A stretch of DNA of 64,000 nucleotides from Thermoanaerobaculia bacterium (GCA_963719225.1 CAVRAY010000002.1:320001-384000); one strand, 5' to 3'; positions 20,285-26,653 are shown, counted from the stretch's first letter. The notes: a model not told the origin generated them from the sequence alone. Made by a program: numbers and translations.

Positions 20285-21727
<1,443 letters not shown>

Positions 21728-21729
21728 CG

Positions 21730-22137
21730 TTGGAGGGGAAGCTCACGCTGACGGTCGTGACGCCGGAGCGCGCGCTGCTCCAGGACGTATCGTGCGACGA
21801 GGTCACACTGCCGGCGTGGCGCGGCGAGCTCGGCGTCCTGCCCGGGCACACGCCGCTCATCGCGCTGCTCGGAATCGGGGTCGTCGGATATCGCGACGGA
21901 GGCCGGCGCCAGACACTCGCCGTCCGCGGGGGATTCGTGGAGATCGCGGGCGACGCGGTGCGCATTCTCGCGGACGAGGCGGCGGCGCCGGAAGGCATCG
22001 ACGCGGCGAAGGCGTCTCAGGACAAGGCGGACGCGGAGAATCGGCGCGCGCATGCGGCGGGGGACGAGGAGCTGGACGCCGCGAACGCGGACGCCCGCTT
22101 CGCGGAAGCGCGCCTCTCGGTGCTCCGGCCGGCCTGA
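21730..22137 (+). CDS. atpC: ATP synthase F1 epsilon
   Basis: VVTPER, GELGVLPGHTPL, GGFVEI; TTG start. Confidence 0.95.
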   Translation: MEGKLTLTVVTPERALLQDVSCDEVTLPAWRGELGVLPGHTPLIALLGIGVVGYRDGGRRQTLAVRGGFVEIAGDAVRILADEAAAPEGIDAAKASQDKADAENRRAHAAGDEELDAANADARFAEARLSVLRPA

Positions 22138-22174
22138 GTCGGAAGAGAGCGAAAGGCGCAGCCGACGACGTCTC

Positions 22175-22294
22175 CATGGGGAGCCGCAAACCCCGGCACG
22201 GGGCTTGCGACAGTGGGAGGCAGGGCCCGGTGAGCGCCGAAAGGGCGCGCCGGGTGAAACGAACACCTCCTGCCTCCTACCAGGGCTCCGCATG
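22175..22294 (+). ncRNA. unclassified structured RNA / riboswitch-like element
   Basis: Nested stems found by eye in a non-coding gap; no family signature recognised. Confidence 0.45.
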
Positions 22295-22311
22295 ACGGAG
22301 CCCTCTTTTTT
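22282..22311 (+). terminator. intrinsic terminator after atp operon
   Basis: AGGGCTCCG-CATGA-CGGAGCCCT followed by CTTTTTT. Confidence 0.85.
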
Positions 22312-22352
22312 CCCCCTATCATCGGTCCCCGGATGAACGCGAGAGAGCCGGC

Positions 22353-23144
22353 ATGATGCTCGAGCGCGATCCCTGGTACTCCCAGTGGTTCGGGGAGGAG
22401 TACCTCGCGCTCTATCCCGAGCGCGACGACCGCGAGGCGCGCCAGAAGGCGACGTTCGCCCGCGAGCTCCTCGCGCCGTTCGCGCGCATCGGCCGCATGC
22501 GCTTTCTGGATCTGGCCTGCGGGACGGGACGGCACGCCGTCGCGCTTCACGAGGGACTCGGCGGGGTCGTCGGACTCGACCTCAAGGGGCGCCTCCTGTC
22601 GCAGGCCCGAAAGAGGAGGGAGGGGCCGGGACGCCCGCTCTTTCTGCGCGCCGACATGCGGCAGCTTCCCTTCCGCGCGGGAACGTTCGGCGCGGCCGTG
22701 AACTTCTTCACGTCGTTCGGCTCCTTCGAGGATCCCGCAGAGGACGCACGTTTCGTGCGCGAGGTGGCGCGGGTCCTGGCGCCCGGGGGCGCATTTCTCT
22801 CGGACGTCTTCAATGCCGAGCGCGTCGTCTCGACTCTGGTCGTGCGCGAGGTGAAGACCGTGGCGGGCGAGCGCGTGAGCATCCGCCGACGGTACGATCC
22901 CTCGAGCAGGCGCGTGGAGAAGGAGATCGAGATGGGCTCGGGCGAAAAAAAGCGCCTCTTTTCGGAACGCGCCCGGGCCTACACGGAGTACGAGCTCCGG
23001 GGCTTTCACCGCGCGGCCTCTCTCACGGTGCGCGCGGCCTACGGCAACTTCGACGGATCGCCGTTCGACCGGCGGAAGTCGCCGCGCCTGATTCTTCTCG
23101 CCGTGAAGGGCGCGGCGAAGGCCCGCGCCGAGAGTGAGCGGTGA
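22353..23144 (+). CDS. class I SAM-dependent methyltransferase, candidate bacillithiol N-methyltransferase (NmbA-like)
   Basis: LDLACGTGRH, ADMR, FFTSFG, LAPGG; stop overlaps bshC start. Confidence 0.85.
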   Translation: MMLERDPWYSQWFGEEYLALYPERDDREARQKATFARELLAPFARIGRMRFLDLACGTGRHAVALHEGLGGVVGLDLKGRLLSQARKRREGPGRPLFLRADMRQLPFRAGTFGAAVNFFTSFGSFEDPAEDARFVREVARVLAPGGAFLSDVFNAERVVSTLVVREVKTVAGERVSIRRRYDPSSRRVEKEIEMGSGEKKRLFSERARAYTEYELRGFHRAASLTVRAAYGNFDGSPFDRRKSPRLILLAVKGAAKARAESER

Positions 23145-24709
23145 CGACGATTCCGCTCGCGCGCCTTCCGGGGATCCCCGCCCTCGCGCGCGGCCTCGCG
23201 ACGGGTACGCCGGACGTTTCGGCGTTTCTCCCGGACCGGCCGGAGCTCGAGACGATCGTGGAGAGAGCCCGCGCGGTCCTCGCCGCGTTCCAGCCGCGGG
23301 TCGTGGCGCGCGATACCGAGCCGAGACTCGCGGCGCTCGCGTGTGGCGAAGCTTCCGCGGTGTTCGCGGGGCAGCAGGCGGGTCTCTTCGGCGGTCCGCT
23401 CCTCACTCTCGTGAAGGCGCTCGCCGCGGAAAAGCTCGCCGCCCACGTCGAGGGCGCGGGGACCGCCGCCCGGCCCGCCTTCTGGTGCGCATCCGAGGAC
23501 CACGACCTCGTGGAGGTCACGCGCCTCGTCCTGCCCGGTCCGGACGGCACGGTGGATGTCGGCCCCGACGCCTCCTCCCTCACGGAAAACAAATCGCCCG
23601 TCGGAACGCTCCCGGTCGGTGTCGAAACCGGGGCACTCGTCGCGAAAGCCGTGGCTTCTCTCGCCGTTCCGCCGGACGGAGAGGCGCTCGCCGCGCTGAC
23701 GGCCGCGCACGCGGGGAGGACTTTCTTCGAGGCTTTCTCGGTGACGCTCGGATGGCTCCTCGGCGGAACGGTCCCGATCGTCGACGCGGCCGACCCCGCC
23801 GACAAACCGGCCCTCGTGCCGCTCGCCTGTCGACTCGTGCGTGAGAGGGCCGCGGTCAAGAAGCTCCTGAAGGAGCGCGACGAGGCTCTCGAGGCCGCGG
23901 GCCATCCGCTTCAGGTCACGTCCGACCCCGCGGCCCTGCCGCTCTTCGCGCGCGTCGGGCGCGAGCGGCTTCTGCTTCTCGAGACGGGCTCGAAGATTTC
24001 TCTCAAGGGAGGCGAGGAGTCGTACGAAGCCGAGGAAGTCGTCGAGCGCTTTGAGAGCGGCGCCTGGCTGCCTTCCTTCTCGGCGCTCACGCGGCCGCTC
24101 GCCGCCTCCGTTCTTTTCCCCGTTGCCGCGACGGTCCTGGGTCCGGCCGAGATCGCGTACTGGGCCCAGGCCTGGCCCCTCTTCTCGTGGGCTGGAATCG
24201 TCCCGCCCGTGACGGTTCCGCGACCCATGGTGGCGCTGGTGCCGGCCGCGACGGCGCGCGTTCTCTCGAAGCTCGGTCTGTCTCTCGAGGACGTCCTCGC
24301 GGGCGAAGAGGCGATGCTCCGCAAGAAGGGTGCGGGAGAGGCGCAGCCGCTGCTGGAACGTCTCACGGCGATCCGGGAGAATGCGATCCGCGCGATCGAC
24401 GCCGAAGAGCCGGCGCTCCGTGCGATCGACTCCTCCCTTCAGAAGGCGGTCCGGACGACGCGCGAAAAGACGAGCTTCGCTCTCGAGAAGCTCGTCGAAA
24501 AGACCGCAGCGGCGGCGGGACGCGCGGACGAGCGGACGGCGGCGCAGGTGAAGAGGCTCGCGGAGGAGATTCTGCCGGGCGGCGTCCTCGCCGAGCGGGC
24601 GTACTCGGTGCTGCCCTACGTCCTCAAGTTCGGCCGCGAGGCGGTCGTGGGGGCGCTCCGCCGGGAGCTCCGCTGGAACGAGCCGGGTCTCCAGGTGATT
24701 CCGCTGTGA
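23141..24709 (+). CDS. bshC: bacillithiol cysteine-adding enzyme BshC
   Basis: GQQAGLFGGPL, FWCASEDHD, SALTRPL, GPAEIAYW, LAER. Confidence 0.92.
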   Translation: MTTIPLARLPGIPALARGLATGTPDVSAFLPDRPELETIVERARAVLAAFQPRVVARDTEPRLAALACGEASAVFAGQQAGLFGGPLLTLVKALAAEKLAAHVEGAGTAARPAFWCASEDHDLVEVTRLVLPGPDGTVDVGPDASSLTENKSPVGTLPVGVETGALVAKAVASLAVPPDGEALAALTAAHAGRTFFEAFSVTLGWLLGGTVPIVDAADPADKPALVPLACRLVRERAAVKKLLKERDEALEAAGHPLQVTSDPAALPLFARVGRERLLLLETGSKISLKGGEESYEAEEVVERFESGAWLPSFSALTRPLAASVLFPVAATVLGPAEIAYWAQAWPLFSWAGIVPPVTVPRPMVALVPAATARVLSKLGLSLEDVLAGEEAMLRKKGAGEAQPLLERLTAIRENAIRAIDAEEPALRAIDSSLQKAVRTTREKTSFALEKLVEKTAAAAGRADERTAAQVKRLAEEILPGGVLAERAYSVLPYVLKFGREAVVGALRRELRWNEPGLQVIPL

Positions 24710-24738
24710 AGGTCACACCCGTCGACGTCCTCGGCTCG

Positions 24739-24777
24739 CCGGGGGGCTTGCCTTCGGGCGCCCCCCGGGCCCCCCGC
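24739..24777. repeat. REP-like GC hairpin, copy 2
   Basis: CCGGGGGGCTTGCCTTCGGGCGCCCCCCGGGCCCCCCGC. Confidence 0.75.
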
Positions 24778-24797
24778 CGAAGAGGCTGGAGGAAGAC

Positions 24798-25535
24798 GTG
24801 AACATTCAGGAAGTCGACGTCCTCGCCTTCTCGCCGCATCCCGACGATGTCGAGCTCGGGTGCGGCGGAACGCTCGCGTCCCTTTCGGCCCGCGGGCTGA
24901 GCTTCGGAATCGTGGACCTCACGCGCGGCGAGATGGGTACGCGCGGGACGGCGGACGTCCGGGCCGCGGAGGCCGCCGAGGCCGCGCGGATCCTCGGGGC
25001 GCGCTTCCGCGAGACGCTCGACCTCGGGGACGGCGGCCTCAGGACGGACCGCGCGGCCGAGCTCCGGGTCGTCGAGGCCGTCCGCCGGGCGCGGCCGCGC
25101 GTCGTCCTTGCGCCGCTTCCCACGGATCGCCATCCGGATCACGCGCGCGCGGGCCGCCTCGTCCCGGAGGCGGCCTGGTACGCGGGCCTCGGGAAGCTCG
25201 AGGCCGGCCTCCCGCCGCACCGCCCCGACCAGGTCCTGTTCTATGCGACGTACGTTCTCGTGATGCCGACGTTTCTGGTGGACGTTTCGCCCACGTTCGC
25301 GACGAAATTGGCCGCCGTTCGCGCGTATCGCAGCCAGTTCCACGACCCGAACTCCGGCGAGCCGGAGACGTATGTCTCTTCGAAGGGCTTCTTCGACGGG
25401 ATCGAGGCGCGCGCGCGGGCGCTCGGGAGGATTGCGAACGTGGACTACGCGGAAGGCTTCGTCTCGAACGCGCCCCCGACGCTCGCGGACCCTGTCGCCG
25501 CGTTTCGCGGGTACGAGGGCGGGAGGAGAACGTGA
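24798..25535 (+). CDS. bshB1: bacillithiol deacetylase BshB1
   Basis: HPDDVELGCGG, DLTRGEMGTRG, HPDH, YRSQF, YAEGF. Confidence 0.93.
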   Translation: MNIQEVDVLAFSPHPDDVELGCGGTLASLSARGLSFGIVDLTRGEMGTRGTADVRAAEAAEAARILGARFRETLDLGDGGLRTDRAAELRVVEAVRRARPRVVLAPLPTDRHPDHARAGRLVPEAAWYAGLGKLEAGLPPHRPDQVLFYATYVLVMPTFLVDVSPTFATKLAAVRAYRSQFHDPNSGEPETYVSSKGFFDGIEARARALGRIANVDYAEGFVSNAPPTLADPVAAFRGYEGGRRT

Positions 25536-26653
25536 AGATCGGCATCACGTGCTATCCCACGTTCGGCGGCTCCGGCGTCGTCGCGACGGAGCTCGGGCAC
25601 GAGCTTGCGCGGCGCGGGCACGACGTGCACTTCCTCAGCTACGCGTTGCCGTCGCGCCTGAACGTCTTCGCAGACCGCGTGACGTACCACGAGGTCTCGG
25701 TGCCCTCGTACCCGCTCTTCCAGTACGCGCCATACGACCTCGCGCTGGCAACGCGGCTGGTCGACGTCGCTCTTCACGAGGGGCTCGACCTCGTCCATGC
25801 CCACTACGCCCTGCCGCACGCGATCTCGGCTCATCTCGCGCGCGAGATGCTCGCCCCGCGTCGGCTCGGCCTCGTGACGACCCTGCACGGCACGGACGTG
25901 ACGATCGTCGGGCAGGACCGGTCGTATCTGCCGATCACGCGTTTCGGCATCGAGAAGTCCGACGTCGTCACCGCCGTTTCCGAGCATCTCCGGAAAGTCA
26001 CGATCGAGGTCTTCCAGCCGAAGAAGGAGATCGAGGTCGTGCCGAACTTCATCGACCCCGATCGCTGGACTCCGGAATCGTCGAAGCTGGCGTGCCGCTT
26101 CGTGCCCGCCGGACGAAAGGTCCTCCTGCACGTTTCGAATTTCCGGCCGGTGAAGCGCGTTCTGGACGTCGTCGAGATCTTCGATCGCCTGCGGCAACGC
26201 GTCCCGGCGACGCTCGTCATGATCGGCGACGGCCCCGATCGCCCGGCCGCCGAGGCGCTCTGCCGCGAGAAGGGCATCGCGTCCTCCGTCTCGTTCCTCG
26301 GGAACATGCCCGCGCTCGAGGCCGTGATGCCTGCCGCGGACCTCTACCTCCTGCCGACCAACTCGGAGTCCTTCGGGCTCTCGGCCCTCGAGGCGCAGGC
26401 CTGCGGGGTCCCCGTCCTCGGATATGCCGTGGGCGGTCTGCCCGAAGTCATCGTGCACGGCGAGACCGGCTTTCTTCGCGAGGTGGGCGACATCGGGGGC
26501 CTCGCCGAGGACGGCGCGAACCTCCTGCAGGACGACACGCGCTACGCGGCGATGTCCCGCGCCTCCCGCGAACGGGCGATCCGCCTCTTCGACGCCCACA
26601 CGATGGTGTCGCGCTATCTCGCGCTGTACGAGAGGGTCCTCGCGGCAGCCTGA
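25532..26653 (+). CDS. bshA: N-acetyl-alpha-D-glucosaminyl L-malate synthase BshA
   Basis: KIGITCYPTFGGSGVVATELG, HAHYALPH, TTLHGTD, HVSNFRPVKR, ESFGLSALEA. Confidence 0.96.
   Translation: MKIGITCYPTFGGSGVVATELGHELARRGHDVHFLSYALPSRLNVFADRVTYHEVSVPSYPLFQYAPYDLALATRLVDVALHEGLDLVHAHYALPHAISAHLAREMLAPRRLGLVTTLHGTDVTIVGQDRSYLPITRFGIEKSDVVTAVSEHLRKVTIEVFQPKKEIEVVPNFIDPDRWTPESSKLACRFVPAGRKVLLHVSNFRPVKRVLDVVEIFDRLRQRVPATLVMIGDGPDRPAAEALCREKGIASSVSFLGNMPALEAVMPAADLYLLPTNSESFGLSALEAQACGVPVLGYAVGGLPEVIVHGETGFLREVGDIGGLAEDGANLLQDDTRYAAMSRASRERAIRLFDAHTMVSRYLALYERVLAAA

Follow-up and report, generated by a model that had tools for sequence, protein, structure and literature searches.

A probable, conserved small RNA gene with a predicted sigma-54 promoter between atpC and the bacillithiol operon of a Thermoanaerobaculia bacterium

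In the genome of a Thermoanaerobaculia bacterium (hereafter G000), a stretch of DNA ending in an intrinsic terminator separates atpC from a bacillithiol operon, and the question is what this stretch encodes. We analysed it within a window of 64,000 nucleotides, which designates here the whole stretch of DNA under analysis, and compared it with 28 sister genomes of the same genus. The original prediction, made from the sequence of the window, had described a riboswitch-like RNA with a terminator/antiterminator switch that would gate read-through into the methyltransferase-bshC-bshB1-bshA operon, or alternatively a stand-alone small RNA (sRNA). It had placed this RNA between atpC and the bacillithiol operon, and profile matches indeed identified the flanking genes as such (Table 1), atpC being the last gene in the order atpA-atpG-atpD-atpC. 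The reading that we consider rather likely is that positions 22194-22311 correspond to a conserved sRNA gene with a predicted sigma-54 promoter, whose CU-rich tract would pair in trans with the Shine-Dalgarno regions of mRNAs; the stand-alone sRNA put forward as the second possibility thus fits the data.

Table 1. Features of the atpC-bacillithiol locus and pairwise sequence identity of its segments (positions counted from the first nucleotide of the window).
Feature	Position	Strand	Pairwise identity	Remarks
atpC (F1 epsilon subunit)	21730-22137	+		TIGR01216, 93.1 bits (cut-off 67.25)
atpC stop to P1			48.0%	
Small hairpin P1, CTCC-ATGG-GGAG	22172-22183	+	81.0%	RNAalifold; one compensatory U-A among 16 sequences
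Predicted sigma-54 promoter (15-mer), CGGCACGGGGCTTGC	22194-22208	+	92.6%	GG 22195-22196 at -25/-24; GC 22207-22208 at -13/-12
Spacer -11 to -1, GACAGTGGGAG	22209-22219	+	52.6%	Freely variable; holds most of GTGGGAGGCAGG
Predicted sRNA, ~92 nt	22220-22311	+		Start predicted from the promoter (+/- 2 nt); ends in the U-run
5' end and hairpin	22220-22254		87.4%	
5' hairpin P3, CCCGG-TGA-GCGCC-GAAAG-GGCGC-G-CCGGG	22226-22254	+		Fold and RNAalifold
Linker			46.5%	
CU-rich tract, ACACCTCCTGCCTCCTACC	22263-22281	+	94.6%	Nearly invariant, highest identity of all segments; two CCUCC; predicted seed
Intrinsic terminator	22282-22311	+	87.8%	Stem-loop 22282-22304
U-run	22306-22311	+	91.7%	
CCTATCATC	22315-22323	+		Just 5' of the methyltransferase gene, outside the sRNA
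Downstream operon	22353-26641	+		SAM methyltransferase, bshC, bshB1, bshA
SAM methyltransferase	22353-23144	+		Weak NCBIfam matches only
bshC	23141-24709	+		BshC, 244.5 bits, below the cut-off of 265.8; sole family match
bshB1	24798-25535	+		BshB1, 268.4 bits (cut-off 182.5)
bshA	25535-26641	+		BshA, 509.4 bits (cut-off 273.7)

All the elements of the predicted fold were recovered in the sequence, at the expected positions or within one base of them. The two arms of the proposed antiterminator, CATGGGGAGCC (22175-22185) and GGCTCCGCATG (22284-22294), pair at 10 of 11 positions, as claimed. The terminator hairpin (22282-22304) has 9 pairs, 7 of them G-C, with a loop of 5 followed by CTTTTTT; the hairpin CGCAAACCCCG-GCA-CGGGGCTTGCG is located at 22185-22209 and the GAAA hairpin at 22226-22254. 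The 12-bp stem can also be drawn in the window, with GTGGGAGGCAGG (22213-22224, one base later than implied) facing CCTGCCTCCTAC (22269-22280), but it is not kept above shuffles, since 70.1% of its cells are paired across copies against 70.4% after shuffling, with 0 compensatory changes. Its 3' strand is almost invariant; its 5' strand varies freely, as would be expected of the spacer between the predicted promoter and start, in which most of it lies, and no compensatory change links this spacer to the CU tract. At -97.6 kcal/mol, the + strand of 22138-22315 folds better than any of 200 dinucleotide shuffles, whose mean is -74.2 (z -5.04). The - strand folds about equally well (z -4.37), so that the fold alone cannot assign the strand, which is given by the conserved U-run. 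With the 16 copies described below, RNAalifold retained four local hairpins and the terminator. Covariation was weak, with a compensatory change in 2 of the 35 RNAalifold pairs, because these copies are close relatives.

A search of the whole window against 4227 Rfam families with cmscan gave 0 matches at gathering score, in agreement with the original prediction, which had recognised none of the SRP, 6S, SAM-I, cobalamin, glycine, FMN, NiCo and c-di-GMP signatures. When 22050-22420 was searched at a permissive E-value, we obtained four sub-threshold matches, the best at 17.8 bits for a gathering score of 70; the matches to asX2 and Atu_C8, which are due to the terminator and score well under threshold, were rejected. 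No aptamer-like conserved core with covariation was found in the element among the 16 copies. A small ORF within the RNA was also rejected, its start and frame differing between copies in the alignment, as judged by eye.

Blastn detected the stretch once in its own genome and in 15 of 60 relatives, where its identity is 80-87%; these 15 all belong to the same genus. We built a covariance model, R1, from an alignment of 16 copies (A2). It scored 151-170 bits in 16 genomes of the genus, namely G000 and 15 of the 28 others, with 156.8 bits for the copy in the window. A pattern scan of metagenome contigs yielded 97 stretches, including 11 R1 matches at E <= 1e-4; ten of these are new close copies and the eleventh has the very sequence of a genome copy, and together they bring little new variation. 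An atpC-linked copy was also present in one genome of another genus, G065. At the order level, six weak matches of R1 in family f2 were rejected, as they align only at the terminator or at the GAAA hairpin; one of them is in G037, which is counted, as is G042, only among the genomes without a convincing match. Two genomes contain two diverged copies each with the same flanking genes, G005 (contigs C159 and C665) and G006 (C7 and C19); these doubled copies are probably due to mixed strains rather than to duplication (contamination 5-7%).

The genomic context of the module is conserved. The RNA follows atpD-atpC in all copies and is always followed by bshC, with or without the methyltransferase gene in between: the order atpD-atpC-RNA-methyltransferase-bshC was recovered in 13 genomes, and the methyltransferase gene is missing in G009, G026, G027 and G065, where the RNA directly precedes bshC. 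In genomes devoid of the RNA (5 of 5 examined), the atpC stop is followed after ~25-35 nt by CCGCCTATCATC, then by the methyltransferase gene, and the gap between atpC and the bsh operon is about 55 nt. The comparison with these RNA-less sisters thus defines the RNA as a presence/absence module of ~150 nt located between two operons, and the occurrence of the same operon in RNA-less genomes indicates that the bacillithiol operon exists independently of the RNA. The motif CCGCCTATCATC is the counterpart of CCTATCATC, which is retained 3' of the terminator in 8 of the 16 copies; in G065, the counterpart CCCCTATGATGG sits before bshC. CCTATCATC may serve the bacillithiol operon as a -10 element, a promoter or an operator; a sigma-70 scan of 21500-23000 found no promoter-like site. 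The SAM methyltransferase gene may itself be an orthologue of a gene whose methyltransferase is reported to produce N-methyl-bacillithiol from bacillithiol, in a paper that also mentions Acidobacteria (PMC6282198).

The original prediction had overlooked that one of its hairpins, CCCCG-GCA-CGGGG-CTTGCG, holds a sigma-54 promoter signature, so that the predicted transcript would start only near 22220. The signature NGGCA[CT]G-N4-TTGC was recovered throughout, in 16 of 16 genome copies, 11 of 11 metagenome copies and G065. The 15-mer starts with T in one of the genome copies and in 4 of the metagenome copies; in 12 of the 16 genome copies, C (G in one copy) takes the place of this T, which is the usual base. 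The spacing between GG and GC equals that of tGG(-24)cac-N5-TGC(-12), the motif given for ChIP-defined RpoN sites in PMC3439928, which also tabulates bound promoters starting with CGGCAC. With C 22208 at -12, the start is predicted at about 22220, where conservation indeed resumes, and the segment identities follow a pattern of promoter, variable spacer, hairpin, seed and terminator (Table 1).

The genome encodes rpoN (403.7 bits for a cut-off of 277.35) and gave 28 strong and 4 weak matches to Sigma54_activat (PF00158); none of the activator genes found with this profile lies inside the window. The pattern TGGCA[CT]G-N4-NTGC has 17 matches in G000, of which about 10 sit 16-45 nt before a ribosome site and a start codon and one is the promoter of the sibling sRNA described below. 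As the reversed pattern used as a control gave 30 matches, the number alone proves nothing and it is the positions that carry weight. Among the 96 strict terminators of G000, 11 have a CU tract just upstream, and the two of these with a 15-mer within 260 nt are exactly the two sRNA loci. The 15-mer begins 57 nt 3' of the atpC stop and there is no terminator in between, so that transcripts of the atp operon would also stop at the terminator 22282-22311; transcription of atpC probably continues into the RNA gene, both transcripts sharing the one terminator. With its RNA gene after atpC and its shared terminator, the locus resembles a 3'-UTR-embedded sRNA with its own promoter.

The predicted fold of the ~92-nt RNA comprises a 5' hairpin, an open linker with the CU tract, and the terminator, whose stem is invariant and whose loop is variable. 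Within the CU tract, ACACCUCCUGCCUCCUACC, lies CACCUCCU, which forms the core of the 3' end of the 16S rRNA of its own genome (GGATCACCTCCTTTCT, at C1:905528); the tract is largely unpaired in this fold, CCUG at about 22269-22272 pairing with the 5' end. Hfq is encoded in the genome (63 bits for a cut-off of 61.7). In G065, the order is promoter, a 5' hairpin of different sequence at the place of P3, ACCUCCUCUCCUCCUACC and terminator; P1 is absent and the atpC stop is 8 nt before the promoter, from which it follows that the hairpins located 5' of the promoter in the window are dispensable. P1 lies upstream of the predicted promoter and hence outside the predicted sRNA, overlaps the 5' arm of the antiterminator (22175-22185) and may have a role in atp read-through. 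Its loop tends to resemble, in the same sense, that of the terminator (A2 columns 13-16 and 127-130, by eye; 22176-22179 and 22290-22293 in the window), with CATG/CATG in G000, CACG/CACG in G025 and GCGC/GCGC in several copies; because loops such as CATG and GCGC are palindromic, this same-sense resemblance mimics complementarity. A stretch of 17 nt identical in sense to the seed (CGAACACCTCCTGCCTC) is present near C1 3223250, at the start of a minus-strand gene, within codons 7-12 of a coding sequence whose start is signal-peptide-like; it may be fortuitous or point to a binding partner in common.

A shorter, family-wide RNA of ~50 nt with the same promoter signature is a paralogue of the window RNA. 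In six sister genomes, weaker R1 matches pointed to a second locus, flanked 5' by an adjacent RNase G/E-like gene and 3' by an MFS-like gene, and the corresponding sibling copy of G000 is at C1:63530-63652 on the minus strand. A second model, R2, built from an alignment of seven sibling copies (A3), had matches in 9 of the 10 genera of the family (59 of 63 genomes) and cross-matched the atpC-linked copies, the window being recovered at E 7e-4. We inspected 64 R2 matches and extracted by regular expression 51 sequences with the full motif; five further siblings, which have the variant GACGCAC or lie outside the search range, were recognised by eye, for a total of 55 of 63 genomes. In the siblings, TGGCA[CT][GA]-N4-NTGC is separated by 12-14 nt from G(C/A)CGCA[CT], which is followed by a CU-rich tract and then by a terminator with its U-run. 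The variable stretch following the motif in the 51 sequences (12 nt in 18, 13 nt in 27 and 14 nt in 6) ends at the invariant GCGCA[CT], where a sigma-54 transcript would start. The sibling seeds differ in detail, with the CCUCC/CUCCU core always kept.

The position of the sibling gene varies between genera. It follows the RNase gene in g1, g2, g3, g4 and g5, is convergent with this gene (rng) in g7 (G034) and comes after a different gene in g18 and g9; the siblings precede the MFS-like gene or other genes. Terminator and pattern scans of G000 gave no sibling gene beyond the two already mentioned, cmscan of six sibling loci against Rfam gave no match at the RNA, and R2 produced a single weak match (G180, E 2.5e-4, excluded from the counts) in 134 genomes of the class outside the family. 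A pairing between the promoter block (motif A) and the CU tract, proposed by RNAalifold on A3, was rejected, as GTGCG:CGCAC is lost in g2; in this genus GCGCAC is unchanged but CTGCA occupies the -12 region. The RNase and MFS genes are adjacent in the sister genomes and about 4 kb apart in G000, where the sibling terminator is directly followed (from about C1 63530 downwards, minus strand) by DNA extremely rich in A+C and poor in G and T, over more than 500 nt, in a genome of 68% G+C. In G066, a TPP riboswitch (RF00059, L053 2287-2381, + strand; 62.4 bits for a gathering score of 54.3) is located about 700 nt from the sibling sRNA.

Judging by other bacterial sRNAs, a seed of this kind would pair with GGAGG-type ribosome-binding sites and block initiation. 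In the reading that we favour, the locus would function as follows: sigma-54, together with an enhancer-binding activator, would switch on the promoter at 22194-22208; the transcript would start near 22220 and end at the terminator 22282-22311; its CU tract (22263-22281) would then pair in trans with the Shine-Dalgarno regions of mRNAs, and this pairing would occlude their ribosome-binding sites and repress the initiation of translation. We compared the seed with its reversed sequence on 3448 start regions, a crude list. The mean energy was -19.1 kcal/mol for the seed and -18.3 for the reversed seed, and -24 kcal/mol or lower was reached at 534 versus 366 sites, a slight shift that gives no clear sign of targets. 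For the sibling seed, the same crude start regions gave -16.7 versus -17.6, i.e., a worse value than the reversed seed. The best "target" start was miscalled, being located inside a phosphorylase gene. A more ambitious scenario, which we find doubtful, is that the family possesses two sigma-54 sRNAs with seeds copying the 16S 3' end and that the window copy acts as a global "anti-SD mimic" switch. If so, one enhancer-binding sensor would throttle the translation of many Shine-Dalgarno-led mRNAs, and the position between atp and bacillithiol genes would tie this switch to energy and thiol-redox genes.

Several other readings of the locus can be weighed against the trans-acting sRNA. The riboswitch or attenuator of the original prediction, in which 22175-22185 would pair with 22284-22294, prevent termination and let atp transcripts read through into the methyltransferase-bsh operon, now appears very improbable. 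The element does always precede (methyltransferase-)bshC, the antiterminator forms 10 of its 11 pairs in the window and 7-11 across the 16 copies, and two of its pairs change on both sides, in G000 only. However, the paired cells amount to 78.4% against 77.9% in column shuffles, 133 of 500 of which do as well, and 36 of 500 contain as many double changes; moreover, the 5' arm forms a local hairpin and G065 is without such an arm. In these alignments, both the antiterminator and the 12-bp stem look more like features of the G000 genome than of the conserved element. The gating of the bsh operon is further weakened by the sibling copies, which precede unrelated genes, by the operon kept in the five RNA-less genomes examined, and by the lack of an aptamer-like core with covariation and of any Rfam match; the supposed linkage to the methyltransferase does not hold in the four genomes that keep the RNA and lack this gene. 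It seems equally far-fetched that the conserved element acts at the DNA level, as a set of protein-binding sites plus a shared terminator transcribed into a functionless RNA. The conservation is admittedly mostly in primary sequence, with little covariation, but G065 and the siblings retain the same succession of hairpin and terminator in another sequence, and the conserved U-run gives the element a strand.

The element could also lack a promoter of its own and simply be the structured 3' UTR of the atp operon with its terminator, the 15-mer being part of an RNA hairpin and any sRNA arising by processing of the atp mRNA. We consider this unlikely, although it would account for the short distance to the atpC stop (at most 57 nt, without intervening terminator), for the 81% conservation of P1 despite its position 5' of the predicted start, and for the fact that most siblings also sit directly 3' of a gene; in addition, the letters of the 15-mer can pair as CCCCG-GCA-YGGGG, with one compensatory change. 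Siblings from other genera nevertheless keep the GG and GC and their spacing without being able to form the same hairpin, the 11 nt after the 15-mer are the least conserved, and conservation is back after 12-14 nt in the 51 siblings. The convergent orientation of the sibling with rng in the genus of G034, and its location after a different gene in two genera, imply that the sibling does not depend on one upstream transcript. A sigma-54-driven RNA that titrates a CU-binding protein, or that pairs with a single partner outside start regions, would agree with the absence of enriched complementarity at the predicted start regions, and the 17-nt seed-identical stretch among the early codons of a gene for a secreted protein would fit a competition for a common partner. 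We nonetheless judge this quite improbable, as two CCUCC units are few for a sponge, the sibling seeds always keep the CCUCC/CUCCU core matching the anti-Shine-Dalgarno, and the negative target scan is weak because the list of gene starts was crude.

The trans-acting sRNA that we favour can be compared with several known systems. The RNAs Qrr1-5 of Vibrio depend on sigma-54 and LuxO, and NrsZ of Pseudomonas aeruginosa on sigma-54 and NtrC. The window RNA shares with them a GG(-24)/GC(-12) promoter (here predicted), an intrinsic terminator and sibling copies in one genome, and an enhancer-binding activator and Hfq would be expected to assist it as well. In contrast to these RNAs, whose families are in Rfam, it gave no cmscan match; it also belongs to a different phylum, has no activator gene beside its locus, and has a CU-rich seed resembling an anti-Shine-Dalgarno. 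In Firmicutes, RsaE/RoxS and the streptococcal csRNAs have C-rich or CU-rich seeds that cover ribosome-binding sites. The likeness with the window RNA lies in the pyrimidine-rich, unpaired seed complementary to a GGAGG-type Shine-Dalgarno, whereas promoters and folds differ and none of these families was matched in Rfam. In enterobacteria, MicL and DapZ are 3'-UTR sRNAs with their own promoter, of the sigma-E or sigma-70 type. The window RNA likewise has its own promoter (again predicted) at or after the end of the upstream gene and a terminator common with the mRNA of this gene, but the promoter is of the predicted sigma-54 type and there is no homology. Similar in position are flaX of Vibrio cholerae, reported as an RpoN-dependent small RNA located 3' of a flagellin gene (PMC3439928), and GlnZ, reported to derive from the glnA 3' UTR (PMC9731577): they too are sigma-54-linked small RNAs directly after a protein gene, with a common 3' end. 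GlnZ is cut from an mRNA made by sigma-54, whereas the promoter signature of the window follows the stop of a housekeeping operon, and the sequence of the window RNA is unrelated to both.

A sigma-54-dependent sRNA with a seed resembling a ribosome site is thus not new as a kind. The window RNA is a new, uncatalogued family of this known kind, whose start, regulator and targets are putative. Our full-text literature search yielded no publication that deals with small RNAs in Thermoanaerobaculia or with sigma-54 sRNAs in Acidobacteria, a phylum (Acidobacteriota) abundant in soils and sediments. The locus provides a concrete RNA family for an Rfam-style model, with clear boundaries, a predicted sigma factor and two paralogous types, and its presence/absence polymorphism could be used to find the regulator. 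The analysis also removes what was probably a false lead, as we found no evidence of a riboswitch at the bacillithiol operon here.

Among named relatives, whose taxon labels were taken from record titles, the RNA was recovered only in records titled as Thermoanaerobaculia, Acidobacteriota or "Holophagales" MAGs, with 12 R2 matches among the 100 loci searched and one more recognised by eye. Most of the 119 pattern loci of the named collection were rejected as chance occurrences or as sigma-54 promoters before protein genes beginning with ATGCGCAC (Myxococcota). Two further records, L133 and L219 (titled Latescibacterota and Gemmatimonas), contain nearly identical loci with CTGGCACGCAAGTTGC, GCGCAC and a CCCTCCTT tract, which may correspond to another sigma-54-driven small RNA.
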